DNA from: a virus
Direction: 5' to 3' (one strand)
DNA: 44,822 bases
Virus record (IMG/VR): IMGVR_UViG_3300017963_000102
Positions 11,841 to 31,470 of this stretch are shown piece by piece; the first letter of the stretch is position 1; the number at the start of each line of letters is the position of its first letter. A program made the translations under genes and the position numbers. Below the pieces are notes generated by a model, which had not been told where the DNA came from, did no database searches, and was given only the letters and a program-made list of their open reading frames with translations.

Positions 11841-12740
11841 ATGAAACTCGTCCGGAACCTGGACGCGGTCGGGCCCGCAGGGCGCCCGCCGCGACGTTTG
11901 CGTACGCTCCTCAACCCGAACCCCTGGGGGCGGACGCTGTTTGTGGATTCGAGTCACTCCCGGGCAAGCAACAGCAGGAGTGGCCAGGATCCCGCGCACC
12001 CGCTCAGCACGCTGGTGAACGCGGTGAGCAAGGCCCGCGCCGACGATCAGATCATCGTCGGGAGCGGGCACACGGAGACGGTGAGCACGTCGGAAGGCCT
12101 GGACGTGAGCGTCAATGATCTTCACATCATTGGGCTCGGCCAGGGCCAGCGGCGCCCCAAGATCCAGATCGGCACGTTGGCAGCCGCCAACATGAAGATC
12201 AGCGGGAGCGGCGTGCGTATGGAGAACTTCTGGCTCGACGGGAACCTCGACGCGATCACGAAGCTGTGCGAGGTGACGGGCCACGACTGCATTCTCGACG
12301 ACTGGTTCATCACGCAGACGACGGGCCAGCCCGTGACGGCGCTCCTGCTGACCACGGCGGACCGGTGCAAGGTCCTCGGCCTCGAGGCCGACATGGACGG
12401 CGCCGGCGCAACGCGGTGCATCGACCTGGTCGGCGGCGAGTGGATCGAGATCGCCTATTGCCAGATCGACGGCGACTTCAGCGGCGCCAACATCACGAAC
12501 TCGGCGACTGCCTTCGCCCACGCGAACATTCACCACAACTGGCTGATGAATGAGAACGCGGTGGATGCGAACATCACGGCCCAGGCGACGAGCGACGGTT
12601 TCATTGCACACAACCTGTGCAGGATCGCGACCGACGCCCAGACGACCTGGATCACCGCGGCGGATTGCCACTGGTTCGAGAACTACGGCGTCAACGTCGA
12701 CGGCGAGACTGGCGGCTTGATCGGTAGCGCGTCGTCCTAG
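11841..12740 (+). CDS. right-handed beta-helix (pectate-lyase-fold-like) protein
   Basis: ATG with AGGAG upstream. The N-terminal PLSTLVNAVSKARADDQIIVGSGHTE is followed by repetitive short beta-strand-like segments (ANITNSATAFAHANIHHNWLMNENAVDANITAQ). Confidence 0.5.
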   Translation: MKLVRNLDAVGPAGRPPRRLRTLLNPNPWGRTLFVDSSHSRASNSRSGQDPAHPLSTLVNAVSKARADDQIIVGSGHTETVSTSEGLDVSVNDLHIIGLGQGQRRPKIQIGTLAAANMKISGSGVRMENFWLDGNLDAITKLCEVTGHDCILDDWFITQTTGQPVTALLLTTADRCKVLGLEADMDGAGATRCIDLVGGEWIEIAYCQIDGDFSGANITNSATAFAHANIHHNWLMNENAVDANITAQATSDGFIAHNLCRIATDAQTTWITAADCHWFENYGVNVDGETGGLIGSASS

Positions 12741-12783
12741 TCCGACGTCAACGACAATCAGTAACACCGGGAGGTGCGGAGCC

Positions 12784-13455
12784 GTGAATCTGACACAGCT
12801 GCGGCCGGCCACCCTCGGCTGGCTAGATGACCCGAGAGGCGACCGTTTCGTCGACCATGATTCGTTCGCGCGGCTCGATGTGCTCATCAACACCGCGTAC
12901 AAGGACCTGGTCAACGCGATGGACAACTGCTCGGAGGCGTGGAACGTCAAGGACACGCCCGAGACGCTGACGGTGGGGAGCTCGGCGCGGGAGTACCTGC
13001 TCACCAGCACGGACGTCCGGCGCCCGCTCCTTGCGCGGCGGGTGGAGTCGAGCGGGACGTACACGAACCTGATCGAAGCCCCATGGGGTCGGCGTGACAA
13101 CTACGTCCGCCACCCCATTCCGCGCCTGGGGGCCCAGCCGCCGGACCGGGTCGCGTGGTACCGGGATTCGCAGACCGGCAAGTTCGGCCTGGTCTTCTAC
13201 GACGATTCGCCGGCCTCGCAGAGCGTCGAGGTTTTCTATCAGCAGCTGGTCGAGGACCTCGAGGAAGCCAGCGACATCCCGTACCAGGTACCGCTCCACT
13301 GGCACCACATCATCCCGATCGGCGCGGGCTACTTCGGCAAGGTCCAATCAGAGCGGTCCGTCGCGAAGCTGGGCCCCATGTGGTTCGACTACAAGGCGAA
13401 CATGGTCGCGGATCTGGACAGCATCAGCCGCGGCAAGAGCTGGAGACCCATTTAG
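12784..13455 (+). CDS. putative head-tail adaptor/connector protein
   Basis: GTG start with GGGAGGTG upstream. The 223-aa product sits between the capsid-proximal genes and the large tail protein. The function is assigned from position only. Confidence 0.35.
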   Translation: MNLTQLRPATLGWLDDPRGDRFVDHDSFARLDVLINTAYKDLVNAMDNCSEAWNVKDTPETLTVGSSAREYLLTSTDVRRPLLARRVESSGTYTNLIEAPWGRRDNYVRHPIPRLGAQPPDRVAWYRDSQTGKFGLVFYDDSPASQSVEVFYQQLVEDLEEASDIPYQVPLHWHHIIPIGAGYFGKVQSERSVAKLGPMWFDYKANMVADLDSISRGKSWRPI

Positions 13456-15464
13456 TGCCGAACCGGCGACCCAAGTTCACTGGCCCGTTCCTGGGGCTCA
13501 ACACGACGTTGACACCCCGGGACCTGGATGCGCGGTGGGCGGTCGACGCCCAGAACGTGCTCCTCAGCGACGGGCGTGTCCGGCCGGCCTGGCCCCTGTC
13601 GTTGTGGGGCGGGACGGATCCGGAGGCAGCCTGGCCGGCCGTGACTTGGCAGGAGGGCTGGGTCAGCCCGATGGGCAACCAGATCCATTGGGATTCGCCG
13701 AAGGTCGGCGAGATCATCGTGTTCCAGTCGTACCTGCAAGATCGGGGGTGGCGCTACTGGGCTGCTTACCCTGACGGGCGCGTGCTGGACCTGGCCCCCT
13801 CGCAGCCGCGCCCCGCGTGTTACGTGCCGGCGTACGGACGGCTCTACATGCTGGACGGTGCGGACCCCCGGAAAACCGACGGGACGATCGAGGGGACGGT
13901 GCTCGCCGGTTTGTTTCCGCCGACGGGAGCAGCCCGCCTGGTGCGCGACGACAACACCGAGGGGTGGGCGATCCTCGAGGAGGGCACCTACGAGTACGCG
14001 ATCACGTACTACGACGAGGAGCATGACGTCGAGAGCAATCCGTACAACCTGGGCCAGATCGACATCACGGCGAGTGAGGAGCATCGGGCCCAGATCCAGG
14101 TGACGGGCGAGCCACTTGCGAATCGCCATGTGACCCACTGGCGGCTGTACCGGAAGGACATCCACCTGGGCACGCCGTATTTTCTGCTGCGCAGTCAGAG
14201 GAAGTACGAGGCCGGGAGCTTGTACGACCCGTACGGGACGCGGACCGACCCGACGCCGGCGGAGGGCAACACGACCACGGGCCCCTTCGCGCCGAGCAAA
14301 AACGGCGTGCCGCCCAAGGCGACGGTCGGTTGTGTCTACCGGGACCGGATGTTCTACAACAACTCGGTGACGACCGACGGCCGGGATGACCTGCTGCACT
14401 ACTCGGCGTTCGGCCGACCCGACCACGTGGATCCGGACGACTACGAGACGCTGACCGGAGATGCCCAGAGCGGAATCACCGGTATGGCGGAGTTGCAGAA
14501 GCAGCTGGTTCTTTTGAAGCCCAAGTCGATCTGGGTCCTCAGCGGCACGATCGTGACTTCGACGAACGAGACGATCGCGACGGGCGCGACGGCGCCGAGC
14601 TCGTCGCACTCCCTCGGGAAGACGAAAGCGACCATCGGGTGCGCGAACACCGAGGGCGGGAACGGTGCGATCGTCGTGGGCGAGCCTGAGCGTCTGCACT
14701 TCAACGGCGAGGCCGGTCTGTACTCTTTCGACGGGGTCGCGGAGCGGAACCTGGCCAAGAACATCAAGGACACCTGGCGGACCTTCGCCAAGCGGAGGAG
14801 CGAAACCGAGGGCGAGAAGAACCAGCAGGTGAGCTACGCGGTGGACACGGTCAACCGGATCCTCTTCATCGCGAACGGTGTGCAGCCCTGGGGAGATCCC
14901 GAGATCCTCGCGTACCACTACGGTCGCGAGGGGCCGGACGGAGTCGGCGGCTGGACGTACCTGCGATCGCCCTGGCGTGCCAGGCCGTACTGCTCGGTTG
15001 CCACGACGCTGGGCGACATCCACGAAGCGGAGGATGACGCGGAGGCGACGTTCTACGCGCCGCTGATGGTTGCATGCGCCGACGGCAAGATCCGGATCGG
15101 CAACGACCGGTCCGAGATCCTCGAGATGCCGCGGTTCCGCTATGAAACCCCTCCGCTGCGTCCGCTGGACGGAGGCCTCGCCCACATCTATCAGGTGACC
15201 TGGCTGCACGGCCGGGTGGTCAGCGACGACGACTACCCCCGCGACTTCGAGTTCGGGCACCGAGCCAAACGAGAGGAACAGTACGAGCTGCGGAGGAGAT
15301 CCCTGCGCTACGCGGCTTCGCAGCATCAGCCGATCAGCAGGGAATCGGACGAGATCAGTCTGCTGGTGCAGAGCCCGAGCGGTCTCGGCGACACGATGCA
15401 CTGGCATCCGGATATGGGCCTGGCGGGATGGATCCTCGAGTTCGAGCCCGCCGGCGGTTACTAG
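13455..15464 (+). CDS. large tail structural protein (nozzle/tail-tube-like)
   Basis: GTG 13455 overlaps the upstream TAG by one base (TAGTG). The 669-aa product has coding bias only from this point within the longer 13155..15464 ORF. The function is assigned from position only. Confidence 0.45.
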   Translation: MPNRRPKFTGPFLGLNTTLTPRDLDARWAVDAQNVLLSDGRVRPAWPLSLWGGTDPEAAWPAVTWQEGWVSPMGNQIHWDSPKVGEIIVFQSYLQDRGWRYWAAYPDGRVLDLAPSQPRPACYVPAYGRLYMLDGADPRKTDGTIEGTVLAGLFPPTGAARLVRDDNTEGWAILEEGTYEYAITYYDEEHDVESNPYNLGQIDITASEEHRAQIQVTGEPLANRHVTHWRLYRKDIHLGTPYFLLRSQRKYEAGSLYDPYGTRTDPTPAEGNTTTGPFAPSKNGVPPKATVGCVYRDRMFYNNSVTTDGRDDLLHYSAFGRPDHVDPDDYETLTGDAQSGITGMAELQKQLVLLKPKSIWVLSGTIVTSTNETIATGATAPSSSHSLGKTKATIGCANTEGGNGAIVVGEPERLHFNGEAGLYSFDGVAERNLAKNIKDTWRTFAKRRSETEGEKNQQVSYAVDTVNRILFIANGVQPWGDPEILAYHYGREGPDGVGGWTYLRSPWRARPYCSVATTLGDIHEAEDDAEATFYAPLMVACADGKIRIGNDRSEILEMPRFRYETPPLRPLDGGLAHIYQVTWLHGRVVSDDDYPRDFEFGHRAKREEQYELRRRSLRYAASQHQPISRESDEISLLVQSPSGLGDTMHWHPDMGLAGWILEFEPAGGY

Positions 15465-19734: not shown

Positions 19735-22700
19735 ATGCCCGACGAACCGAGCCTCCTGGACGTCGTGGCCCGTCGGTACGCCGAGAGCCGGGACCGCGTT
19801 CCTCCTGAGGCCGATGACGATCTGTTTCGAGCTGCGCAGCGTCACCAGCTGCCCCCGCTCGAGACTGCTGAACAGGACATCTTCAATGCCGCGCAGGCGG
19901 TGTTCCAGGGCGCGGCGGTCCCCGAGATCCGTCCGGCAGCACCCAGCCCAGAGCAACAGGCCCGTGACCGCGCAGCTGAGGAGAACATCCCCCTCCTCGA
20001 GCGACGTCCTGGAATAGAGGAACCCTACGGCGAGCTCGAGCGACGGGTGGCCCAGCGTGTCATCCGGGAGCAGGAGATCGGGGCGGAGGACTACGGAGAG
20101 CGGCGCCGGCTGTTCGATGAACGCATGGAGGCCGCGGCCCGCGAACGGTGGGCGGAGCGGGTCCGCGCCGAGCGTGAGCAATTCTACCGGGAGAACCCCG
20201 AGGCACGTCCCCCCGAGGCGATCGACCTGACCCGTCCGCAGATGGGGCCACCCGCGCCGGAACCGAAGCGTAAGCGGGTGGGGGCCTTGAAGCGTCTATT
20301 CGGCCCGCTGGTCAGAACCACGCAGGCACCGGCCCGCGTCACCGGGCGACTCATGCAGGAAACCCGCGCGAGCACCCTGGTCAACGAGATCGTGGAGCGG
20401 GAGACGCGGCACCGAAGACGAAACAAGTTACACACCCCCGAGCAGCTCGAGACCCAGTACGGTGTCGACGCGGCGGTGCGCCAGGAGCTCCTCGGCGGGT
20501 TTCCGATGTACGACGACCAGGCGTTCGACAAACAAAAGCAGCTCTACATGCTCTGGAAGTCCATCGAGGACAGCCATGGCGAGGCCTTGCCCGAGGCCCA
20601 GGGGTGGCTCGAGAAGCTGGCCACGTTCGGTGGGGATCTGGGCGCTTTCATCGCAGAGATCAGCATACTGCGGCAGACACCGGGTCTGGCCAGGTATTCG
20701 CGGCAGTACGCTCGAGGCGTGGCACCGGTCACGGCGCCGACCGGCCCCGAAGCACTCCGCCAGGCTACCAGGCAGCACCAGGTCGCCGGCGTGGCCCGCG
20801 AAACCCTCGCAGCTGGCGGGGTCGGCGCACTGCACGGAGAGGATCCGTTCCAGGCCATGCTGACGTTCGCTCCGTTCGGGGCGACCAGGTTCCTCAAGCC
20901 TGTGCAACGGACGATGGCGCAGTCTGCCCTGTTCGCTGGTCCGGACGTCATGGCTGGCGAGTGGCAGGACGCCATTGTGCATGGTGTCTTCGGCCCGCTG
21001 ATTTTCTCGATCCCGGATATGATCCGGTACCCGTTCCGAGCTCGCGGCGCTCGCCCGGAACCCATCGGAGACTGGGAACGCTTCGCCGATTCACCCAGCC
21101 AGGTCGAACGCCTGATCTACCGGTACATGAGCATCAACCGTGAAGTGCAGGGGTTCGCAGGACGCGAGGTCAGCGCAAACGAACTGAGAACGGCACAGAG
21201 CGAGGCGGGCCAGGCCGCGCAGGCCCTGGCGCGTCACTACGCTCGTGCCCAGGAAGGTCGGGGGGAGTACTCGCGCCAAGAGCAGGCGCTGCTGCGTGAG
21301 TTCGTCCACCATCACAGACCGGAGGCCGTGCAAGGCCGATGGCAAGAGGAGGCTCGTCATGCCCCTGAAGAAGGGATGCAACCAGGCGAACGTGTCGTCG
21401 AACATCCGAGAGATGAAGGACGCAGGCCACCCCCAGAAGGTCGCGGTCGCGGCGAGCCTCCGCGCGGCGGGGTGACCCCTGAAGAAGGACGCGGGCCAGT
21501 TGGCCCGACGGAAGCCAGGCCCCAAGAAAGGCCGCAAGCACGGCCCGAAGTGACCCCGAAACCTCCGGCCCCGCCCCCCTCTCCGGGACCGGAGGCCCCA
21601 CCAACAGCGGCACCGCCGAGACCGTCGGTCTCGGCTCCCAAGAAACCCGAACCGAGGCCGCCCGGCGGTGCCGCGCCTGGTGTACAAGTCGGTCAGCGGA
21701 CCGGATCCACAGAAGGCTACAAGGAGCGGTACCTCCAGCTTTACGGCGAGGAGATGCCGGCGTGGGCGGAGTCTCTTATCGAGACGCGACGGAAGGGCCC
21801 CGAGGGCGGAGGCAGGGAGGCACTCAAGGATGAACTCCGCTCCCTCGGGGTTCCTGAGAACCAGCTGAACCGGATGGCGATGACGTGGTATTTCCCGGAG
21901 ATGCCGGACCGGCCGTCGACGGTGATGGAGGCGATCAGGAGGACGAAGGAGGCGATGGCGCCGCCACCAGCCGAACCGGAGCGCCCCCCGGTCGCTGAGG
22001 AGGCTGCTGCAATCGAGCCCCCGGCTGACCTGCTGAAGTGGTGGGACGGCTTGAGTAACGCCGACCGCGCCGACGCGGCGGTGACGTTCGGCTGGACCAA
22101 GCAGGACGCGGCTCGCTACGCACAGGCCAGGTGGCAAGACCTTGCGAGGAGTGTCCAGGAGCACCTCGTCGAACGGTGGGAGAAGATGACCGAGACCGAT
22201 CGGGCGCAGCTGGGGCTGCCCAGGAGGCAAGCAGAGCAGCCGGTGCCGACGCCTGAGCCGGTCGACGTCGACGACGAAATCACACCAGAGACGATGCAAG
22301 CGGTTGGCCGTGAGCCCGAGGCGCCGGCGGAGCCGCCGGCGCTGCGAGCGGGTCTCGCTGAAGAATGGTGGGACAAGGAACTCACAACAGCAGGTAGACG
22401 GGACGTCCTTGCAGCCCTGGGACGGGAAGACGCGGCGGCGGAACTCGTGAGCCCGAAAGTTCGATGGCGACACATCCGTCACGACATGCAGGACGTTCTG
22501 CGGAGGGCCCTCGCAGAACGCACGTTGCCCCAGGAGCTATGGCCGGAGGAAATGACGCCGCCGGACGCAGCACAAGCGTGGTGGACAAATGCATCCCTTG
22601 CAGAGCGCCGGCGTGCGGCGGAGCAGATCGGCTACATCGAGGAGCATGGGGCGAAGCTGCTGGCCAAGGTGAGCTGGGAGCAGCTGAGTGCCGACGTGCA

Positions 22701-25700
22701 AGGCGACCTTCGAGCGGCAGTCGCCAGAGGGGAGCTGGGGGCACCAGAGCCCGCTCCGCAGCCTGTCGCAGCGCCCAGTGGGCCAGCGGCGCCGGAACGT
22801 CCCGTAACACCCCCGGAGGCGCCAGAGCTCGCCGAGGGGCCTGAGCCCCCCTTGCCGGGCATGGGTGACGTCGTGCGGGCCCGGCTTGTTTCCACCTACC
22901 GGAAGCTGCTGGCCCAGTACAAATCCCTGGTGCAGGAGGGGTACAAGTCCCCGGTTTACCAGGAGATCGTCGCCCGGAAGTCACGCGACTGGGAGCGCCA
23001 CGTGATTCCGGGTTCGGATATGGAGCGTGTACGCCAGGGCGGACCGTTCGACATCGGGAAGGACATCACGGATCAGTTCGAGAGCCCGCTGGCAATCGCG
23101 GAAACCAAGCGTAAGGACGCCATGGCCGTGTTCGAGTCGTGGCCTGAAGCCCGTGCCGTCGCGATCGCCAGGGACGTGGGGATAGACAAGCCGAGCCGGA
23201 CGCTGCTTGGTATACTAGAACAGGAGGCCGCAAGTGAAACGCTACCGACACGGGAAGAGGGTCCGCAGCCCCCGCCGGAAGAACCGGAAGGGCCAGCCGG
23301 ACTACCCACTCCGATTGGCCCCAGCCCAGGACCAACACCCACTGCTGGAGCCCCAGAGCCCGCCGCCCCAGGTGAGCGAGAAGGAGGCCGAGAGCCTGCT
23401 GTCAGCGAGCGGCCTCGAGGCGAAGAAGCACTGGGCGAAGCACCTACCGAAGCTGTTCGCGAGCCTCGTCCAGCAGAACCGGCTGAACCGGGCGCTTTAC
23501 CTGGCCCAGGAGCTGACGTTGAGGGCCGTCCACCGGTACCGGGAGAACGGCGTGCCGGCGAACCAAGCCCTGAGCCTAGTGAGCCAGGAGTGGCTCCTCC
23601 CGCCAAGCGAAGACGAAAGGCGCCTGGAGAACGAGCTCGCGGGGAACCTCGAGCCCGACCAGGTGCTCGCGAGCTACCACAAGAGGAGGGGGCGGTTCAG
23701 CCCAGGCCTGCCGAGCCCGAGCCGGAACCAGTCACCCATACCGAGCCCACCGTCGGAGGAAGCGACTACATAATCGCCGAGGACGATCCCCTGTTTGCCG
23801 AGGGGATGGGCAAGCGCGCAGCCCGCACCAACATCCAGGCGATCAGGGTGCTGAAGGAGGTGGAGTCCGAGAACCGTCCGGCCACGCCCGAGGAGCAGAC
23901 CCAGCTGGTGAAGTACCTCGGCTGGGGCTCGATGTCGGAAACCTTCAACACCTGGCGAACGGAGTGGGACGCGATCCGGAAGGAGCTCCAGGGCGTGCTG
24001 GACGCCGACGAGTACCAGGCCGCGGCCGACTCGACGAGCAACGCGATGTACACGCCTCCGCGGATCATCAAGGCGATGTACGCGGCGGTGATCGGTTTCG
24101 GGTTCCGGGGCGGGAGCGTCCTCGAGCCCGCGTCGGGTGTCGGGCACTTCTTCGGACTCATGCCTCCGGAGCTCCGCAAGCTGGTGACTCGCGTGGGGAT
24201 CGAGAAGGATTCGATCAGCGCGCGGATCGGGGCCCTACTCTACCCGCGGTCTGACATGCGTCGGACGCCGTTCGAGGAGGCCCAGCTCCCCAAGGACTAC
24301 TTCACGCTCGCGATCAGCAACGTCCCCTTCGGGAACGTGGCGATCTTCGACCCGCGGTACCCGCAGTGGGCGACGGCTGCGATTCACGACTATTTCTTCA
24401 TCAGGTCGCTCGACCTGGTCCGGCCTGGCGGGGTGGTGGCGTTCATCACCAGCAACGAGACCATGGACAAGGCCACGCCCTACGTGCGCCAAGGGATCGC
24501 GGAGAGAGCGGACCTGCTCGGTGCGGTCCGACTGAACAACAAGTCGCTGCCTGGCACACAGGTGGTGGCGGACATTATTTTCCTTCGCAAGCGCCTACCA
24601 GGTGAGGAGCCGGGGGGAGAGGCCTGGCTCAAATCCCCCCGGCTGCCGGAGCTCCGCGACTACACCGTCAACGAGTACTTTCATGCGCACCCGGAGATGG
24701 TCCTCGGCACATTCGCGCCGGGCACGTTCCACGCTCGTGGGGCCCGCATCACGGTCAACCCGCGGTCGAAGGAGGATCCTCTTGAAGGCCTGGCCGAAGC
24801 CGTCGCGGCGCTGCCTCACAACGTGATGACCGAGGCGGGCGACGTCACCGCGCCGAAGGATCCCGCCGACCTGGTCATGGCCCCGACCAGGGTACCTGTC
24901 GGCTCGTTCTTCCGGGTGGGTGACAAAGTGCACTACAAGGGGGAGAGCGAGACGGCGCCGCCGGCGGCAGTGATCGTGCGCGGCGAGATCCAGGCGAAGG
25001 AGCGGGCCAAAGCGGCGCGGAAGATCAAGCCAGGGCAGAAGCGGCCGGCCCTGCTCACGGCGAGCCAGATCGACAAGCTGGTCGCGGAGCGTGTCGAGCT
25101 CATCGGCGCCCAGGTGGAGCTCCGCGACGTTGTCCTCGAGCTGCTTCACCGGCAGGCCGTCAACGACGCCGAGGGATGGAAGGGGGCCCAGCGGGACCTG
25201 ACCAGAATCTACGACGCTTTCGTGAAGAAGTACGGCTACCTGCACAAACCGAAGAACGTCCGCGCCCTGGGCGACGACTACCACACCGCCGGCGTCCTGG
25301 ACGCTGTCGAGGTCTGGGATCCGAAGACGAAGCGGGCCACCAAGGCGCCGATCTTCGAGCGGCGCATGATCGCAGCTCACGAACGCAAGCTCCGCGCCGA
25401 GAGTCCGCAGGACGCGATCAACACGTCCATGAACGAGTACGGCAAGCTCGACCTGGCGTATATGGCCCAGCTGCTCGAGACGACGCCGGCGGGAGTGAAG
25501 CAGCAGCTGCTCGAGGGCGCCCTGGCGTTCGAGAGTCCCGCCGGCGAGCTCGTCGTCCGAGACGAATACCTTTCGGGGAACGTCCGCCAGAAACTCGCCG
25601 ACGCCGAGGCGGCTGCCCAGATGGATCCGGACCGGTACCGGGGAAACGTGGAGGCGCTGCGTGAGGTCATTCCCAAGGATCTGACGGTCAGCGAGATCAC

Positions 25701-28700
25701 CCCGCAGCTGGGCGCCCCCTGGATCCCGCAGGAGATCGTCCAGGCGTTCGGGCTGCACCTGTTCGGGGCGACGGAACGGGGCGGGCTGTTCATCCGGTAC
25801 ATCCCGGAGCTCGGCAAGTGGATCGTGCGCGGCGGGTACGAGGTGAGTTCGACGGTCGCAGCCAGGAGCAAGTGGGGAATGCCCGATCGACCAGGCCCGC
25901 AGCTGCTTGGTGACGCTCTCAGCAACCGGGCGCCGATCATCAAGGTCCAGGTAGGCGAGCGCGAGGACGGGACTCCGATCATGGAGGAGGACCCGATCGC
26001 GAGCGACGCCGCGGCCGAGAAGATCAAGGTGATCCGGGCCGAGTTCGAGCGGTGGATCTGGTCGGAGCCGAAGCGCACGAACCAACTGGTGAAGGCCTAC
26101 AACTTCGCGTTCAACAACCAGGCCCCTCGTGACTACGACGGCAGTTACTTAACTTTTCCGGGGATGAGTCCGACCTGGAACCTCTACGACTACCAGCGTA
26201 ACGCGGTGGCGTTCAACCTTCAGCGTGGATCCGGCCTGGTCAACCTCGAGCCCGGGGCGGGCAAGACGATGATCGCGATCGCCACGGCTCGCGAGCTCGT
26301 CCGTCTGGGCATGGCCCGCAAGCCGATGATCGTGGTGCAGGCCTCCACGCTGGAGCAGTTCCGACGTGACGCCAAGAGCATGTACCCGGGACACAGCTGG
26401 ACGGTGCTGACGGAGCAGGACACCGCGCCGGCGAACCTGCGCAAGACCCTGGCGAAGATCGCGACGACGGAGAGCACGGTCGTCATCATGTCGCACGAGC
26501 GTCTGCTGAAGCTGCCCATGTCGGCGGAGTACACGACCGACTACTTCGAGGAGAGGATCAACGACCTGAGCCGGGCGAAGGAGGCCGCGGCGCAGCTCGA
26601 GGGCGAGCACGGACGCACGGCAAAGGAGCTCGGCAAAGCCAGGGCCCGGATGCGCGTGCAGCTCCAGAAGCGTCTGCACGCGCTGAAGCAGATGGAGGGC
26701 ATGGGGTTCGAGCAGCTCGGGATCGACTACGTCATCTACGACGAGTCGCAGCGACTGAAAAACCTGGCGTACCAGACGCAGATGCAGCGAGTGAAGGGTC
26801 TGGGGCCCACCGAGGGCAACAACACCACGTTCGACGCCGAGATGAAGACAAAATACCTCCTCCGCCTCCAGAACGGGCGCGGGGTTCTGTTCCAGACTGC
26901 CACGCCGGTCTCGAACTCGATGGTCGAGCTCTACAACCTGACGCGGTTTCTGGCGCCGACGATGCTCGAGGGTCGCGGGATCACGACGTTCGACCAGTGG
27001 GTGGGCTCGTTCGGGTCCGTCGAGTCCGACGTGGAGAGCCTGGGCGAGGGCGGGTACCGGGACGTCCGCCGGCTGCGCGACTACGTGAACGTCGACGACT
27101 TCATGGCGATGTACGCAGACCACACCTACGTGGTGTCGAAAGACGACGTCCACGCCAGGTGGAAGGCCGAGGGCCGGCCGGCGCCCCTGATCGCGAAGAA
27201 CGCCGATGGTGAGCGGACCTGGCGTCTGATCGTCTCCCCGCCGAACGCGGCACACGAGGCCTACGTGAAGACGATCAAGGCGCGGGCGGAGGCCCTGAAG
27301 AAGCGGAAACGCCGGCCACGCAAGGGCGAGGACAACATTCTCAACGTCATCACCGACAACCGGATCGCCGGCCTTGACCTGAAACTGCGCCGGCCCGATG
27401 CCCCGCGCCACCCAGAGGACAAGATCAGCCGCCTGGCCCAGGAGATCATCACACGCCACGAGCGTGACGCCGGCGAGCGGCTGACGCAGCTCGTCGCCAT
27501 GAGCTTCGGGATTCCAAAGCCCGGCGAGTACTCCACGTACCACGAGCTCCGCGACCTGCTCGTCGAGGGCGGGATCCCCAAGGAGGAGATCGCGATCCTC
27601 CAGGAGGTCTCCGCGCAAAAGCGTCAAGAGCTGTTCGACAAGATGAACCGCGGCGACGTCCGCGTGCTCATGGGGACGATTCAGCTGCTGGGCATTGGGG
27701 TGAACGTGCAGGCCCGGCTCAAGACGTTGCACCTGGCGGATCCGGCGTACACACCAGACCGGATCGAGCAGATCCAGGGGCGAGCGGTCCGCCCAGGAAA
27801 CATGAACACCGAGGTCGAGCTGCTCGCCTACGTGCAGAAGGGCAGCGCCGACGAATTCATGTATTCGCTCGCGTTCCACAAGTGGCGGTTCCAGGGTGCT
27901 CTCCTCAGCGGGACGTTGAAGGGGGCCCGGACCTTCCAGGACGTCGACGTCATCGCCGGCGGGTTCGAGGCTGCGATGGCCCACGCCTCGAGGGCCCCGG
28001 TGGTCCTCGAGTGGACGAAAGCACGTAAGGCCCTTCAGCACTTGCAACGGCTGAAGACGGCCCACGAGGGCAGCCAGCGGGAGCTCCGCGCGCAGCTGGG
28101 GCGGTTGCAGGAGCTGGCCGACCGGATCCGGACCAGGACGCTGCCCGCGGCCCAGCGCGGGGCGAAGCTCGTCGGTGACGCCGCGGAGCAGGCCCTCCAG
28201 GTCACGGTGGGCGGAGTCACGTACACGAAGCCCGGAGAGGCGGGCGTGGCTCTGAACGACGCGGTGATGGCTATGCCGTTGAGCAGCGAGTTCCGACCGC
28301 TGGGCACAGTCAACGGCGTGGAGATCGAAGCGGCTCACGAGCAGCGGACCAGTGTGCATGAGACGTATGACGTCGCCATGTTTCGGCTTGCCGGCACGTC
28401 CATCACGTTCGGGTCGGAGCAGGGGGGGCACTGGTACCCCCAGGCTATCGACATCCACCCGAAACTGAAAAAGACCGGCGCGTCGTACATCACGAGGGAC
28501 GCCAAGCGGCTGCTCGAGATCCCGGCACAGCGGGCGGAACGCCTCCAAGAGCGTCTGGAGAAGACCGAAGCTGAGCTGGCCAGCGGCGAGAAGGAGCTGG
28601 GCCCGTTCGCGCGTGAGGCCGACCTGGCGGAGTACACCGCCAAGGAGGCGAAGCTGTCCGCGCAGGTCGAGGCCCTCGGCGCCGAGCCGGTCAAGCCGGG

Positions 28701-31470
28701 CGACACGTTCACGATGGAGGGCACGGAGTACAAGTACGTCCGGTCGATCGGCGATGAGATCGAGCTCGACATCATGGCTGCCCAGGGCCCTGACGTCGGA
28801 GAGGTCGGGGACGTCGCGGTTGCTCCCGAGGCCGCGGAGTCAAGGCGGTTTCCGCGGGCGGACCTGGTCGCCAAGCTGAAACGGGAGTTCGAGCTGACGG
28901 AGGACAAGCCCGGTACCAGCCCGGACGCCGGCGAGTGGCGGGAGCTCGAGCAGGAAGGGTACAGGCCGGCCAACTGGCTCGCGGGGGTGCCGGCGAACCA
29001 GCGGGCGAGTCTGCTGAAGTGGATCCGGGAGCACGGACCCGATCATCCGGCTTACGGCATGGGGGCGATGTTCAACTTTCCCGACGTCCGCGGGACCTGG
29101 ACGCGCATCTGGGACGGGTTCGCCGATTCGCTCCGGAGTCTGCCCCCTGGTCTCCGCAAGAAAGTTGTTGACGCGATCGGGCGGGCGGTCTGGGGTACCG
29201 ATCGGTGGAACGTGGATCCGGACGCCTGGCGTGCGATCCAGCGTTATCACGGCGGGATGCGCGAGGCGAAGTATGACGCGGACAAGATCACGGGGGCTGT
29301 AGAGGCTCGCATGGGCGAGCTCGAGAAAATGTACGGGCCCGGTGCCCGGGAGACGTTCAACAACTTACTCACCGACGTGGCGGAGGGACGCGAGGATCCG
29401 GCGCGCCTGGATCCGGTGAGCCGCCAGGTCTACGAACGGTATCGCGCCAAGGTGAACCAGCTCACGGACGAGTTCCTGAACGAGACCCACCTGCACAGCT
29501 ACGCGGAGGGGTTCGGCCTGACGAACCTGCTCGAGATCATCCAACGCAAGCGGGAGAGCCCGGGCGCCTACCTCCGCATGATCTTCCGGGAGCAGTACGA
29601 AACCGAATGGGCGGAGGGAACCCACCGGGAGAAGGTCCACAAACCGCGCAAGAAGCTCGAGGAGCGGAAGCGGATCCGGGCGATTCAGGGCGGGATGTTC
29701 AAACATCGGGCGTCGGCGGACCTCTGGACCGTCCGCAACTTCGACGGGACGTTCACGCAGTTCACTGACGCCGACCGCGCGTACGAGCACGCGAGGGAGC
29801 AGATCGACAACCCGGAGCTGAAGGAGCGGTATGGCACCAGCCTCGAGCAGCGTGTGCGCGTGACGGATCCCTTCGGCGAGGAGGCACTCGGCCACCTGGT
29901 ACCCGAGAAAAACATCCTGGTTCGGATGGGGCGGACCATCACCGACTGGCGGCACAACCTCGAGGTGCTTCGCCTGTTCTGGTACATCGACCAGACCGTC
30001 GCGAACGCCGAGAGGGTGGCGGACGACTGGGTACGCACGCCGCGCCACCCGCGGTGGGGGCCATTGGCGGAGAAGTACATCCCGCGCGAGCTCGCCGATG
30101 GCCTCATGGAGACGATTGTCGTGCGGACCGGGCTGTTGTCGCAGCTGTACGACTCCTACCTCTACGCATGGAAGGCGAGCAAGGTGGTCTACAATCCGTC
30201 GACCTGGGGCCGGAACATGCTGGGGCTCAACTTCTTCTGGCTCATGGACGGGATCCACCCGGTCAAAGATGCGCGCTGGTTCGTCGAGGCCGTGCGGCAC
30301 TTCCGGGAAGGGACGCCGACCTTCCGCCGGCTGCTGCGGGAGAACGAGATCAGCGCGGGGTACGCCGAGACGGAGATCGACCGGATCGACAAACTGATCC
30401 GGGATCCGCAGAATACCGTGACCACGGCGCTGGCCAAGTTCCTGAGCAGGCTGGACAGGATCACCAGGAAGACGGGGAATCTGTACGATCTTCCCGACCA
30501 GATCAGCAAGATGGCGTCCTACCTTCGCCATACGTCCGGCCAGGGGTGGAGTCACGAGGAAGCGGTCGCCGCGCTGCAAGGCTACCCGAACTACGCCAGG
30601 CGCGGGAACCTGACGGCCTGGGCCCGCCGCAGTCCGTTCGGGGCTTCGTTCATCGCTTTTGCCGGGGCCTCGGTGCAGGTGAACCTGCACTACGCCAGGA
30701 CGCGACCAGGCCGGTTGCTGATGATGTGGTTGTTGCCGGGGCTGACCACGCTGCTGACGAGTGTGATCCTCGGCCTGGAGGACGAGGAGATTGCGCTCGT
30801 GAACCATGGCGTCCGGCGCAAGACGAAGTCCCCCCTCGGCCGCTACGACCCGTTCGCGTGGATGGACCGGTATTTCATGCCCCTGCTGCCTTGGCGCGAC
30901 GATCAGGGCCGGGTGCGGCAGCTGGATCTGCGGTGGATCTTCCCGCTGGCCAATGATTTCCGGGTAAACACGGGGCCTGGCGGGTTCGGGATTCCCCTCC
31001 TGCTGTCGCAGCCCCTGACCAAGACGGGGATCGAGATCGCGATGAACCGGTCGAGCTGGACGGGCCGCGACATCGCCCGGGAGCACGACGAGCCGGTCGA
31101 GAAGGTGAGGGCGATCGCGAAACACGTGTTCGAGGGTGTTATCCCGCTGCCGACCATCACCACGCGCGGAGCGCGCCGGATCTACCTGGCGGCGACCGGC
31201 GATGAACGCTACCCGCTCATCAAGACCATCCTGAAAGAGCTGTTCGGGATCAACGTGTCGGCGCCATGGATCCGCCGAGAGGATGCGTTCCGAATGCTGA
31301 AGGAGATGAAGGGGGAGAAGGCCGCCAAGGCGTTCGAGGTCGCCTTGACGGCCTACAACGAAATCTACCGGTCCGACCGTGACAAACGCATCAAGAGCCG
31401 GGCGGTCTCCCAATCCCTACGACAGGGGCGGCGCCGGGAGTTACGATCTGCGAGGACCGGTCGGGGGTAA
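19735..31470 (+). CDS. giant 3,911-codon ORF: N6-adenine DNA methyltransferase + SNF2-like helicase (P1 DarB-like) with long N- and C-terminal extensions
   Basis: ATG with GGGAG upstream. Methyltransferase motif I is VLEPASGVGHFFG (~24118..24157) and motif IV is ISNVPFG (~24313..24333). Helicase motifs are motif I LEPGAGKTM (~26248), motif II IYDESQ (~26734), motif III FQTATPVSNSMVELYNL (~26890) and motif VI QIQGRAVRPGN (~27769). A hydrophobic helix (LLMMWLLPGLTTLLTSVILGL) lies at ~30710..30780. Continuity as one protein is uncertain because of two frame-switch islands (see findings). Confidence 0.75.
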   Translation: MPDEPSLLDVVARRYAESRDRVPPEADDDLFRAAQRHQLPPLETAEQDIFNAAQAVFQGAAVPEIRPAAPSPEQQARDRAAEENIPLLERRPGIEEPYGELERRVAQRVIREQEIGAEDYGERRRLFDERMEAAARERWAERVRAEREQFYRENPEARPPEAIDLTRPQMGPPAPEPKRKRVGALKRLFGPLVRTTQAPARVTGRLMQETRASTLVNEIVERETRHRRRNKLHTPEQLETQYGVDAAVRQELLGGFPMYDDQAFDKQKQLYMLWKSIEDSHGEALPEAQGWLEKLATFGGDLGAFIAEISILRQTPGLARYSRQYARGVAPVTAPTGPEALRQATRQHQVAGVARETLAAGGVGALHGEDPFQAMLTFAPFGATRFLKPVQRTMAQSALFAGPDVMAGEWQDAIVHGVFGPLIFSIPDMIRYPFRARGARPEPIGDWERFADSPSQVERLIYRYMSINREVQGFAGREVSANELRTAQSEAGQAAQALARHYARAQEGRGEYSRQEQALLREFVHHHRPEAVQGRWQEEARHAPEEGMQPGERVVEHPRDEGRRPPPEGRGRGEPPRGGVTPEEGRGPVGPTEARPQERPQARPEVTPKPPAPPPSPGPEAPPTAAPPRPSVSAPKKPEPRPPGGAAPGVQVGQRTGSTEGYKERYLQLYGEEMPAWAESLIETRRKGPEGGGREALKDELRSLGVPENQLNRMAMTWYFPEMPDRPSTVMEAIRRTKEAMAPPPAEPERPPVAEEAAAIEPPADLLKWWDGLSNADRADAAVTFGWTKQDAARYAQARWQDLARSVQEHLVERWEKMTETDRAQLGLPRRQAEQPVPTPEPVDVDDEITPETMQAVGREPEAPAEPPALRAGLAEEWWDKELTTAGRRDVLAALGREDAAAELVSPKVRWRHIRHDMQDVLRRALAERTLPQELWPEEMTPPDAAQAWWTNASLAERRRAAEQIGYIEEHGAKLLAKVSWEQLSADVQGDLRAAVARGELGAPEPAPQPVAAPSGPAAPERPVTPPEAPELAEGPEPPLPGMGDVVRARLVSTYRKLLAQYKSLVQEGYKSPVYQEIVARKSRDWERHVIPGSDMERVRQGGPFDIGKDITDQFESPLAIAETKRKDAMAVFESWPEARAVAIARDVGIDKPSRTLLGILEQEAASETLPTREEGPQPPPEEPEGPAGLPTPIGPSPGPTPTAGAPEPAAPGEREGGREPAVSERPRGEEALGEAPTEAVREPRPAEPAEPGALPGPGADVEGRPPVPGERRAGEPSPEPSEPGVAPPAKRRRKAPGERARGEPRARPGARELPQEEGAVQPRPAEPEPEPVTHTEPTVGGSDYIIAEDDPLFAEGMGKRAARTNIQAIRVLKEVESENRPATPEEQTQLVKYLGWGSMSETFNTWRTEWDAIRKELQGVLDADEYQAAADSTSNAMYTPPRIIKAMYAAVIGFGFRGGSVLEPASGVGHFFGLMPPELRKLVTRVGIEKDSISARIGALLYPRSDMRRTPFEEAQLPKDYFTLAISNVPFGNVAIFDPRYPQWATAAIHDYFFIRSLDLVRPGGVVAFITSNETMDKATPYVRQGIAERADLLGAVRLNNKSLPGTQVVADIIFLRKRLPGEEPGGEAWLKSPRLPELRDYTVNEYFHAHPEMVLGTFAPGTFHARGARITVNPRSKEDPLEGLAEAVAALPHNVMTEAGDVTAPKDPADLVMAPTRVPVGSFFRVGDKVHYKGESETAPPAAVIVRGEIQAKERAKAARKIKPGQKRPALLTASQIDKLVAERVELIGAQVELRDVVLELLHRQAVNDAEGWKGAQRDLTRIYDAFVKKYGYLHKPKNVRALGDDYHTAGVLDAVEVWDPKTKRATKAPIFERRMIAAHERKLRAESPQDAINTSMNEYGKLDLAYMAQLLETTPAGVKQQLLEGALAFESPAGELVVRDEYLSGNVRQKLADAEAAAQMDPDRYRGNVEALREVIPKDLTVSEITPQLGAPWIPQEIVQAFGLHLFGATERGGLFIRYIPELGKWIVRGGYEVSSTVAARSKWGMPDRPGPQLLGDALSNRAPIIKVQVGEREDGTPIMEEDPIASDAAAEKIKVIRAEFERWIWSEPKRTNQLVKAYNFAFNNQAPRDYDGSYLTFPGMSPTWNLYDYQRNAVAFNLQRGSGLVNLEPGAGKTMIAIATARELVRLGMARKPMIVVQASTLEQFRRDAKSMYPGHSWTVLTEQDTAPANLRKTLAKIATTESTVVIMSHERLLKLPMSAEYTTDYFEERINDLSRAKEAAAQLEGEHGRTAKELGKARARMRVQLQKRLHALKQMEGMGFEQLGIDYVIYDESQRLKNLAYQTQMQRVKGLGPTEGNNTTFDAEMKTKYLLRLQNGRGVLFQTATPVSNSMVELYNLTRFLAPTMLEGRGITTFDQWVGSFGSVESDVESLGEGGYRDVRRLRDYVNVDDFMAMYADHTYVVSKDDVHARWKAEGRPAPLIAKNADGERTWRLIVSPPNAAHEAYVKTIKARAEALKKRKRRPRKGEDNILNVITDNRIAGLDLKLRRPDAPRHPEDKISRLAQEIITRHERDAGERLTQLVAMSFGIPKPGEYSTYHELRDLLVEGGIPKEEIAILQEVSAQKRQELFDKMNRGDVRVLMGTIQLLGIGVNVQARLKTLHLADPAYTPDRIEQIQGRAVRPGNMNTEVELLAYVQKGSADEFMYSLAFHKWRFQGALLSGTLKGARTFQDVDVIAGGFEAAMAHASRAPVVLEWTKARKALQHLQRLKTAHEGSQRELRAQLGRLQELADRIRTRTLPAAQRGAKLVGDAAEQALQVTVGGVTYTKPGEAGVALNDAVMAMPLSSEFRPLGTVNGVEIEAAHEQRTSVHETYDVAMFRLAGTSITFGSEQGGHWYPQAIDIHPKLKKTGASYITRDAKRLLEIPAQRAERLQERLEKTEAELASGEKELGPFAREADLAEYTAKEAKLSAQVEALGAEPVKPGDTFTMEGTEYKYVRSIGDEIELDIMAAQGPDVGEVGDVAVAPEAAESRRFPRADLVAKLKREFELTEDKPGTSPDAGEWRELEQEGYRPANWLAGVPANQRASLLKWIREHGPDHPAYGMGAMFNFPDVRGTWTRIWDGFADSLRSLPPGLRKKVVDAIGRAVWGTDRWNVDPDAWRAIQRYHGGMREAKYDADKITGAVEARMGELEKMYGPGARETFNNLLTDVAEGREDPARLDPVSRQVYERYRAKVNQLTDEFLNETHLHSYAEGFGLTNLLEIIQRKRESPGAYLRMIFREQYETEWAEGTHREKVHKPRKKLEERKRIRAIQGGMFKHRASADLWTVRNFDGTFTQFTDADRAYEHAREQIDNPELKERYGTSLEQRVRVTDPFGEEALGHLVPEKNILVRMGRTITDWRHNLEVLRLFWYIDQTVANAERVADDWVRTPRHPRWGPLAEKYIPRELADGLMETIVVRTGLLSQLYDSYLYAWKASKVVYNPSTWGRNMLGLNFFWLMDGIHPVKDARWFVEAVRHFREGTPTFRRLLRENEISAGYAETEIDRIDKLIRDPQNTVTTALAKFLSRLDRITRKTGNLYDLPDQISKMASYLRHTSGQGWSHEEAVAALQGYPNYARRGNLTAWARRSPFGASFIAFAGASVQVNLHYARTRPGRLLMMWLLPGLTTLLTSVILGLEDEEIALVNHGVRRKTKSPLGRYDPFAWMDRYFMPLLPWRDDQGRVRQLDLRWIFPLANDFRVNTGPGGFGIPLLLSQPLTKTGIEIAMNRSSWTGRDIAREHDEPVEKVRAIAKHVFEGVIPLPTITTRGARRIYLAATGDERYPLIKTILKELFGINVSAPWIRREDAFRMLKEMKGEKAAKAFEVALTAYNEIYRSDRDKRIKSRAVSQSLRQGRRRELRSARTGRG
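21359..21475 (+). CDS. nested +1-frame small ORF (38 aa) inside the giant ORF
   Basis: GGAGG (21348..21352), a 6-nt spacer, then ATG 21359. The product is MPLKKGCNQANVSSNIREMKDAGHPQKVAVAASLRAAG. The +1 frame carries the G/C third-position signal here. After TGA 21473..21475 the same frame continues with a Lys-rich tail to TGA 21551..21553. Confidence 0.5.
   Translation: MPLKKGCNQANVSSNIREMKDAGHPQKVAVAASLRAAG
23234..23773 (+). CDS. nested +1-frame ORF (179 aa) inside the giant ORF; TnpV-like helical core (tentative)
   Basis: AGGAGG (23222..23227), a 6-nt spacer, then GTG 23234. This is the first start after TAG 23216..23218 in this frame. Hand count over 23372..23701: 102/110 codons end in G/C in this frame against 44/110 in the giant-ORF frame. 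The product reads as a normal helical protein (HWAKHLPKLFASLVQQNRLNRALYLAQELTLRAV...EWLLPPSEDE). Confidence 0.55.
   Translation: MKRYRHGKRVRSPRRKNRKGQPDYPLRLAPAQDQHPLLEPQSPPPQVSEKEAESLLSASGLEAKKHWAKHLPKLFASLVQQNRLNRALYLAQELTLRAVHRYRENGVPANQALSLVSQEWLLPPSEDERRLENELAGNLEPDQVLASYHKRRGRFSPGLPSPSRNQSPIPSPPSEEATT

Follow-up and report, generated by a model that had tools for sequence, protein, structure and literature searches.

A probable PHROG 2423 gene nested out of frame in an inter-module linker of a phage polyvalent protein gene, and its conserved in-frame UGA

The viral DNA analyzed here, IMG/VR record IMGVR_UViG_3300017963_000102 (44,822 nucleotides [nt]; referred to as the window), is a nearly complete phage genome with a GC content of 65% that corresponds to almost the entire sequence of a 44,869-nt metagenomic contig (ENA ERZ27256783). 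It contains a giant open reading frame (ORF) of 3911 codons whose product is predicted to be a DarB-like polyvalent virion protein. Our analysis shows, at a high level of confidence, that a real small gene of the family PHROG 2423 is nested in the linker between the first two modules (A and B) of this protein, on the same strand and in the +1 frame relative to the giant ORF (frame 0), and that a region of 195 nt (in the following the island) is dual-coding. The small gene is interrupted by an in-frame UGA codon, behind which a basic tail continues in the same frame. The reading that best combines these features, and one that we consider probable, is that of an embedded gene with a leaky or programmed UGA read-through that would yield a form of 38 and a form of 64 amino acids (aa). 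The coordinates of the relevant features are compiled in Table 1.

Table 1. Features of the window and of related loci discussed in the text
Feature	Coordinates	Strand	Remarks
Shine-Dalgarno (SD) sequence GGAGG	21348..21352	+	6-nt spacer CTCGTC before ATG 21359
Nested +1 gene, PHROG 2423 member	21359..21475	+	38 codons and TGA; MPLKKGCNQANVSSNIREMKDAGHPQKVAVAASLRAAG
Frame-0 linker reading of the island	21361..21552	+	64 aa, between modules A and B
Frame-0 ATG	21376..21378	+	made by the Cys7 codon of the nested gene (GGA TGC, 21374-21379)
G GGG TGA, in-frame UGA after a four-G run	21469..21475	+	GTG 21472-21474 is a frame-0 Val codon and possible restart codon
Lys/Arg-rich tail, +1 frame	21476..21553	+	25 codons and second TGA; probable read-through extension, 64-aa product
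GC hairpin CGGGCC-AGTT-GGCCCG	21492..21507	+	16 nt after TGA
Second nested +1 ORF	23234..23773	+	179 aa; GGAGG, 6 nt, GTG
Giant ORF, predicted DarB-like polyvalent virion protein	19735..31470	+	frame 0, 3911 aa
Terminase	3118-4881		
Portal	6682-8958		
Major head protein	9871-11112		
Internal virion protein	13155-15464		
L098			3034-aa ORF, 45-56% identical in module A; +1 frame: MSPPLEQGKGCDPKVVGRNVREMKRAGHPQDQSVAAARRAAG, stop, SLSKDAPQFAGPKKRRRKKRGRS, stop; GGAGG, 6 nt, ATG upstream
L100			1690-aa ORF, 27% identical; +1 frame: VPLKKGSSKKVVAENVRRLRSEGYPRKQAVAIALERAGKSYRRPVKKGR, stop; AAGGAG, 7 nt, GTG; no internal stop
L102/L107			module A is a separate 584-aa gene; small gene of 55 aa, MPLKKGCSRKTVGRNIEEMKAAGHPERVAKAAALDSARGSCPRKKSLRRRRRKPM, stop, uninterrupted
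L099, L101			small gene absent; module A fused to the remainder
Homologues of the 23234 ORF	L098 6197-6550; L102 11129-11437; L101 5185-5427; L099 5275-5517		

Coding signal and family membership of the nested ORF

The original prediction, made from the letters of the window, had described at this site the sequence GGAGG (21348-21352), a spacer of 6 nt, an ATG at 21359 and a 38-codon ORF running to the TGA at 21473-21475, and all of these elements are in place. The ORF lies as a whole inside the giant ORF and on its strand (21359-21475, or to 21553), and the Lys-rich continuation that had been noted behind the first TGA is present as well (PLKKDAGQLARRKPGPKKGRKHGPK, ending at the TGA 21551-21553). 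Since GGAGG with a start codon at a suitable spacing has about 20 chance occurrences on the same strand, the SD-start geometry carries little weight when taken alone.

More telling is the codon usage. A hand count had assigned G or C to the third position of 57 of the 63 sense codons in the +1 frame; this figure is exact, and the third positions across the island comprise 32 G, 25 C, 8 A and no T. For a frame-resolved view of the coding signal, we built a codon model from 19 confidently assigned gene segments of the same genome and scored each frame as log-likelihood per codon. Between 21359 and 21553 the signal moves to the +1 frame, which scores -3.83, the level of real genes (module A in frame 0: -3.84). 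Frame 0 of the island scores -4.38, the level of real genes read off-frame, and the +2 frame, at -4.56, is off-frame too. The preference for the +1 frame is seen separately in the 38-codon part and in the tail (-3.90 versus -4.42 in frame 0). A chance ORF was rejected as an explanation, and an independent assembly (ERZ27256798) is 100% identical over the island.

The likeness to small phage proteins that had been proposed was borne out by profile searches, in which both the 38-aa peptide (E = 1.6e-8) and the 64-aa form (E = 1e-8) matched phrog_2423. The family is large: tblastn with the nested peptide gave matches in 110 phage records, and a profile search of 5.8 billion proteins recovered at least 7,959 homologous clusters. 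Its members are mostly 43-50 aa long, start mostly with MPLKKG and follow the consensus MPLKKGxSxKTISxNIREMxKxGHPQKQAVAAALSTARK, to which a Lys-rich tail is appended; nearly all free-standing members carry such a basic tail. The family motif always begins at Met1, and Met1 of the window copy is the ATG at 21359. The window copy retains 12 of the 12 invariant residues (M1, P2, L3, G6, S13, N15, I16, G23, P25, Q26, A29 and A31) and, in an alignment of 56 sequences, six of the eight near-invariant columns. AlphaFold predicts with confidence a two-helix hairpin for the 38-aa protein (predicted local distance difference test score of 91.9). Its structural matches in BFVD are only other uncharacterized family members (template modeling scores of about 0.9), and the family neighbors there include proteins of Ralstonia phage RSB1 and of the Burkholderia phages BcepF1 and BcepNY3 (gp01). 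Searches of Pfam, NCBIfam, PDB sequences, PDB folds and the literature for the motif returned no functional clue.

Genomic position adds to this picture. Free-standing family genes elsewhere are found in the head/virion block, for instance after a P22-type coat gene and before a SU10-type adaptor, and in relatives they adjoin coat, adaptor and protease genes. In other phages the family also forms the N-terminal module of larger proteins, among them the DUF2213 prohead protease (L073; gp28 of Acinetobacter phage AP22), proteins of 190 to 470 aa and one protein of 1321 aa. The window copy, the only PHROG 2423 member in the window, is positioned downstream of the portal, major capsid and internal-virion genes. 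It thus resembles the family in its hidden Markov model match, MPLKKG N-terminus, invariant residues, predicted two-helix hairpin and place in the virion block; it differs in being overlapped by another frame, in having its basic tail cut off by an in-frame UGA and in carrying Cys7, Asn8 and Val28 instead of the usual residues. That the nested gene is expressed, and what its product does, we infer from these sequence features.

Conservation of the overlap and constraint on both frames

Five relatives of the locus were obtained by a full HMMER scan with the frame-0 residues 1-1166, and their DNA was compared with that of the window (Table 1). A word-indexed protein search with frame-0 residues 1-1388 had given no match, nor did megablast and tblastn searches of the giant ORF region against a phage collection, a related-locus search with modules A and B in IMG/VR, or a search of the JGI metagenomes with a three-sequence alignment of module A; an alignment of six module-A sequences contained no segment of sufficient conservation to serve as a query. 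Homologues of module A form the N-terminus of proteins of 1690 to 3782 aa in the relatives. The small gene is overlapped by the giant frame in four lineages (the window, L098, L100 and L102/L107), whether module A is fused to the remainder of the giant protein or not. In L102/L107, where it is not, the TGA of module A falls inside codons 3-4 of the small gene, and no stop interrupts the downstream giant frame anywhere along the small gene. The window and L102 differ here by one frame shift at the junction of module A and the small gene: the module-A frame of L102 hits the TGA in CTGAAG, and that of the window, one base over, reads CCT GAA GAA and continues. All four overlapped copies have kept an SD sequence, which is GGAGG or AAGGAG 6-7 nt before the start codon in L098, L100 and L102, and the amino acids that the giant frame encodes across the SD differ among these. 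None of 80 other family loci in IMG/VR is nested in a long ORF. Two points thereby go beyond the original prediction, namely that the overlap is conserved in a phage clade and that the giant frame is itself under selection across the island.

The comparison with L098 shows which of the two readings is constrained in its sequence. Over the island, the +1 frame is 64% identical (BLOSUM62 sum 183), as compared with 46% identity (sum 109) in frame 0 and 48% (sum 95) in the non-coding +2 frame that served as a control. These alignments point to the small protein as the sequence-constrained reading and to a frame-0 product without residue-by-residue constraint. The island proposal stood to fall with a missing +1 signal, or with a peptide lacking homologues together with an ORF frame conserved in related genomes; instead, the +1 coding signal is present, homologues were found, and the ORF frame is less conserved than the +1 frame.

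Constraint on frame 0 takes a different form. The third positions of the +1 codons are the first positions of the frame-0 codons, so that the lack of T-ending codons in the former means that no frame-0 codon in the island starts with T. Among the 65 +1 codons of the window island, none ends in T, against 4.55 expected (P = 0.008), and only 0.63% of the 65-codon segments of the genes of the same genome are equally devoid of them. The same holds for L098 (0/67), L100 (0/50) and L102 (0/56; counted by reading its codons), which gives 0/238 over the four overlapped copies versus 145/1200 (12%) in a comparison set of 21 free-standing copies from GC-rich phages (Fisher P = 1.4e-12). T is avoided in all contexts, beyond those in which it would make a stop codon. 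The frame-0 island product consists to 75% of Pro, Glu, Gly and Arg, and F, W, Y, C, L, I and M together account for 1 of its 64 residues versus 22% of the whole giant protein. This composition and the avoidance of T fit selection for an open, linker-like reading. An open frame 0 over the island is unremarkable in itself, as it was kept in 26% of synonymous resamples and is found in 47% of comparable 65-codon segments of the genome's own genes. Frame 0 is open in all relatives. Collectively, selection is discernible on both frames, on the +1 frame from homology and identity and on frame 0 from its openness and the avoidance of T.

One residue of the nested gene may bear on the giant frame directly. 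The TGC codon of Cys7 creates an ATG or GTG in that frame, and Cys7 is present in three of the four overlapped copies versus none of 116 other, mostly free-standing, family members. In the window, translation of a giant-protein isoform without module A could begin at the resulting ATG at 21376, a possibility that we regard as a lead only. A DNA pattern for MPLKKGC had 42 matches in genomes, none of them a family gene and most of them out-of-frame chance matches in Aquabacterium/Rubrivivax-type genomes; in viral contigs, the same pattern found family genes only in L106 and L107. As to the order of events, the giant ORF appears to have spread over a pre-existing gene, since the small gene is ancient and widespread while the Pro/Glu/Gly/Arg-rich frame-0 reading lacks homologues.

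Two side observations concern the related loci. In L102 (8001-10057; also in L107), the giant frame is open from about 9700 while the gene caller starts the giant gene at 10057, and its true start may be an ATG inside the small gene. In L100, a second +1 ORF of 48 codons (MPCLYDQVRKRVAELKARLGLSHLDAVHRAWEELDPPKRKVRRKRPR; 3703-3849) follows directly after the nested small gene inside the giant ORF.

The in-frame UGA, the basic tail and competing explanations

A recent nonsense mutation was among the explanations first offered for the in-frame TGA, and the comparison with L098 refutes it. Although only about 45-56% identical in the flanking module, L098 has a TGA at the same codon within the identical 12-mer GCGGCGGGGTGA, followed by a K/R-rich in-frame tail of 23 codons and a second stop. 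Because the flanking module of L098 is only about half identical, the TGA must have been inherited and kept. At the same position other relatives have a sense codon, for Lys in L100, L019, L022 and P0066 and for Ser in L102 (GCC GGG AAG in L100, CGC GGG TCG in L102); where relatives have an ending of the ...R.AGK... type, Lys follows the Gly. A degenerate DNA pattern for GHPQ...RAAG followed by TGA had no match in metagenome, viral or genome contigs.

The Lys/Arg-rich stretch behind the TGA is the homologue of the family tail; that of the window resembles the tails of L020 (GGRKHGRKSR) and L029 (QMARRGK). Between the window and L098, 13 of 21 tail residues are identical in the +1 frame; this 62% identity compares with 53% for frame 0 and 47% for the +2 frame, and the differences fall 4, 5 and 10 times on the +1 codon positions 1, 2 and 3. 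The GC content at the third positions of the giant frame is 52% in the tail of the window (P = 2e-5) and 61% in that of L098 (P = 1.5e-3), against 87% genome-wide. If only frame 0 were read, these positions would drift to G/C, so that the tail looks translated in the +1 frame. In two genomes, then, an in-frame stop is conserved together with an extension of coding type.

As the role of the UGA, read-through is the best-supported option because the tails keep their +1 coding constraint; we advance it tentatively and put it somewhat short of an even chance. On the combined reading favored here, the nested gene would be translated from its own SD (21348) and ATG (21359), while ribosomes on the giant gene would decode the same 195 nt in frame 0 as a Pro/Glu/Gly/Arg-rich, presumably disordered linker. 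Both readings would be maintained, the +1 frame for the sequence of the small protein and frame 0 to stay open and avoid T-initial codons. At the inherited and kept UGA (21473), leaky or programmed termination may cause most ribosomes to release the tail-less 38-aa protein and a fraction to read through to the 64-aa form with its basic tail. The gene context suggests that the small protein probably has a role in assembling the head or within the capsid, perhaps in concert with the packaged giant protein. The giant ORF would have expanded over the old small gene, its frame kept open by the high GC content and the avoidance of T-ending codons.

Several points weigh against this interpretation. 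The UGA is present in only two genomes, so that its conservation amounts to one comparison, and the short tails offer no more than 21 aligned codons of low-complexity sequence. A K-rich +1 frame and an E-rich frame 0 are mirror images of each other, and the similarity of the tails could in part be a by-product of the other frame. In Escherichia coli, UGAC is a weak and UGAU a strong terminator; the base after the UGA is C in the window and T in L098, and because it differs, no conserved leaky context is evident. Two near-invariant positions of the family are altered in the window copy (S8N and Q28V), and internal initiation within a translated ORF may be inefficient. A structure that stimulates read-through was likewise not demonstrated, the folding z-scores of about -1.1 to -1.2 being non-significant. 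GC hairpins with an AGTT(C) loop do occur at the same place in both genomes (in L098 GCCCCGC-AGTTC-GCGGGGC, 4802-4820), 15-16 nt after the TGA, with stems that differ at most positions and a register that is one base off. Such hairpins are found once per 330-400 nt in the window and L098 genomes, and the tail of L102 has one without a TGA. We therefore treat the hairpin as a weak lead.

Two further features of the original prediction proved to be of unequal standing. The 13-mer CCCCTGAAGAAGG does occur in exactly two copies in the window, at 21362 and 21476, and the duplication is thus real in the DNA; as a mechanistic repeat it was downgraded, being largely the ancestral P-x-K-K tail motif plus codon bias. 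The L102 tail has PRKK at the position of the 13-mer, in L098 the N-terminal and post-stop sequences resemble each other over no more than 10 nt with a gap, and the repeat is probably incidental. Both TGAs are indeed embedded in GTGACCCC, a sequence whose frequency equals chance expectation. Of the two GTGA junctions, the first (21472) is kept in L098; the second (21550) is not conserved, the L098 tail ending in TCGTAG.

The conserved first junction lends itself to an alternative in which the UGA is a plain terminator, the nested gene yields nothing but the 38-aa protein and ribosomes restart at the coupled GUG 21472, producing an isoform of the giant protein without module A. Giant proteins of that form occur naturally in L102 and L107, and the genome makes use of stop/start overlaps at other sites, such as 34860. 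The GUG lacks an upstream SD, however, the second GTGA has not been retained, a tail-less family member would be atypical, and the +1 codon bias and +1-type substitutions of the tail in two diverged lineages would go unexplained. We consider such a restart unlikely.

A comparable difficulty besets a -1 slip at a "shifty stop", which leaves the +1 coding constraint of the tail unexplained as well. Here, the P-site tRNA-Gly would move from GGG 21470-21472 to GGG 21469-21471 and decoding would resume at GUG 21472, fusing the 38-aa module to about 3,330 downstream residues of the polyvalent protein (junction ...LRAAGVTPEEGR). The window and L098 share the GGGG that leads up to the UGA, the two UGA-less relatives have only C GGG, and a G instead of C at this place in two genomes would arise by chance about one time in four. 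A canonical X XXY YYZ heptamer is absent, leaving only G GGG and TGA for a single-tRNA slip, and the GC hairpin seen downstream in both genomes begins at a distance of 16 nt from the stop, beyond the 5-9 nt usual for stimulators. The frequent use of the module as N-terminal domain of larger proteins in other phages would accord with such a fusion; on balance, we find it doubtful. Equally doubtful, in our estimate, is the more far-reaching notion that G GGG UGA acts in the embedded gene as a three-way recoding switch between termination, read-through, and a -1 slip or GUG restart. Were it true, slip or restart would attach or couple a head module to an antirestriction polyprotein of about 3,300 residues, and the amount of giant protein made or loaded into capsids would be set at this site.

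The nested gene might also be a decaying relic, a separate small gene swallowed when module A lost its stop codon, with only the giant frame functional today and the UGA marking pseudogenization. The unfused arrangement in L102, just one frame shift away at the junction, the internal stop and two near-invariant substitutions of the window copy, and a frame 0 that is open by chance in 26-47% of cases are what one would expect of such a history. Yet the overlap, the SD, the start codon and the 12 invariant residues persist in lineages whose module A shows only 27-56% identity, every copy retains its +1 codon bias, and conservation is clearly stronger in the +1 frame than in frame 0, which fares no better than the non-coding +2 frame. 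The nested gene is moreover the sole copy of a widespread family in the window, and we judge decay to be quite improbable.

Finally, an artefact, in which sequencing indels have shifted the frame of what is truly a domain of the giant protein or TGA is decoded as sense, can be set aside, since, despite the G and C homopolymer runs that flank the island and the rarity of TGA as a stop in the structural module (2/23 genes), the independent assembly is identical across the island, three diverged relatives share the frame arrangement (which together rule out a sequencing or assembly error), family members always start at Met1, and TGA serves as an ordinary terminator of 10 of the 37 genes in the window, including one overlapping stop/start. 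No tRNA gene, and hence no suppressor tRNA, was found in the window, and TGA as a sense codon was rejected on these grounds; selenocysteine at the TGA was dismissed on context alone.

The host gene, a second nested ORF and known systems

The window has a tailed-phage gene order in which terminase, portal, major head protein and internal virion protein genes precede the giant ORF. The giant protein is composed of module A, a linker, module B, a second linker, and a methylase and SNF2-helicase module. The DarB-like antirestriction profile phrog_10089 matches residues 1308-2984 (E = 0), and the Pfam domains SNF2-rel_dom and Helicase_C score above their cut-offs, while the Eco57I match is weak. 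With its pairing of an N6-adenine methylase and an SF2 helicase, its multiple modules and its location with head genes, the giant ORF qualifies as a gene for a polyvalent virion protein as described by Iyer et al. (2017; PMC5512222). In that study, DarB-like polyvalent proteins have the methylase and SF2/SNF2 helicase pair preceded by extra modules, as is the case here, next to head and internal-virion genes (Iyer et al., 2017). The words frameshift, overlapping and linker are absent from PMC5512222, and the paper gives no account of out-of-frame genes within inter-module linkers; nor did we find any other description of such genes in the linkers of polyvalent proteins.

Some other properties of the window deserve mention. 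Its stop-codon usage (TAG 20, TGA 10, TAA 7) is unusual for a GC content of 65%, and only 2 of the 23 genes in the structural half (up to 31470) end in TGA. A scan for promoters and terminators gave no signal above chance. A perfect 21-nt palindrome, GCCGAGACCG-T-CGGTCTCGGC, occupies 21615-21635 within the Pro-rich linker of the giant ORF. Along the stretches 22255-22524 and 22705-22884 of the giant ORF, the third-position GC of frame 0 is weakened, and one 135-nt segment within them scores best in the +1 frame; these stretches may be ordinary low-complexity linkers or further short overlaps. Residues 3182-3895 of the giant protein (about 29278-31419) have their counterpart in L098 in a separate 691-aa ORF in another frame (12020-14161), so that the C-terminal approximately 714 residues are fused in the window and split off in L098. 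Fusion and fission of modules are common among these phages.

The giant ORF harbors a second nested +1 ORF with the same type of start region, beginning at 23234. Homologues of this 179-aa ORF in the +1 frame are present in four relatives, at 35-50% identity and just upstream of the methylase module (Table 1). Only 2 of its 180 codons end in T, against 13 expected, and no comparable segment of the genome is as low; frame 0 remained open across this island in 4.6% of resamples. Its sole profile match is to the C-terminal end of phrog_938 (a profile of 2185 positions; E = 1.3e-6). The second island is 99.9-100% identical in contigs of ERZ27256798, in ERZ27256773, in two JGI samples and in one Logan run.

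Small genes that are wholly contained in larger ones are known from phages. Rz1 of phage lambda lies entirely inside Rz, occupies the +1 frame of the same strand and has a ribosome-binding site of its own, an arrangement that is conserved in related phages. The nested PHROG 2423 gene shares the complete same-strand +1 nesting, the SD of its own and the conservation among relatives with the Rz/Rz1 spanin genes. In contrast to these, its host is a polyvalent gene of 3911 codons that it overlaps only in an inter-module linker, any functional connection of the two proteins is a guess, and the nested gene is the old and widespread partner, free-standing elsewhere, over which the host ORF would have spread. 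A leaky UGA, in turn, is known from phage Qbeta, where it ends the coat gene and gives rise to the read-through protein A1. The proposed likeness consists in an in-frame UGA between a short major and a C-terminally extended minor product in a phage structural context; the differences are that we deal with a double-stranded DNA phage, an extension of 25 basic-tail residues and a base after the UGA that is not conserved, and that read-through is suggested here by sequence comparison. Programmed -1 frameshifting and shifty stops are exemplified by the G/GT genes of phage lambda. The homopolymeric run directly 5' of the stop and a -1 frame that is open into a large protein recall this type of recoding, whereas the canonical heptamer is missing and the distance to the hairpin is atypical. 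Embedded same-strand phage genes, leaky UGA codons and polyvalent proteins are hence known individually; what is new is that the linker of a polyvalent protein houses an embedded gene which is conserved along with its internal UGA.

These findings have consequences for the annotation of such phages and for the understanding of the family. Gene callers report only the 3911-aa ORF at this locus, so that the nested phrog_2423 gene is invisible in annotation; where a contig begins within the giant gene, they give the second nested ORF and a shortened gene of 2554 aa instead. Dual coding in a double-stranded DNA phage is clear at the island and backed by comparison with relatives; here an older, widespread gene became embedded, the reverse of the usual picture of a new gene arising inside an old one. 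For PHROG 2423, with its thousands of members, the locus offers a handle, as it ties the family to head assembly and possibly to the packaging of an injected antirestriction protein, and the conserved in-frame UGA is a testable candidate for recoding. If the three-way switch considered above were real, it would, together with the conserved nested gene at 23234, mean that out-of-frame genes and recoding signals are regularly concealed in polyvalent-protein linkers. The presence of two nested genes in one polyvalent gene, the second of them likewise conserved in relatives, suggests that these linkers merit a systematic scan for hidden ORFs.

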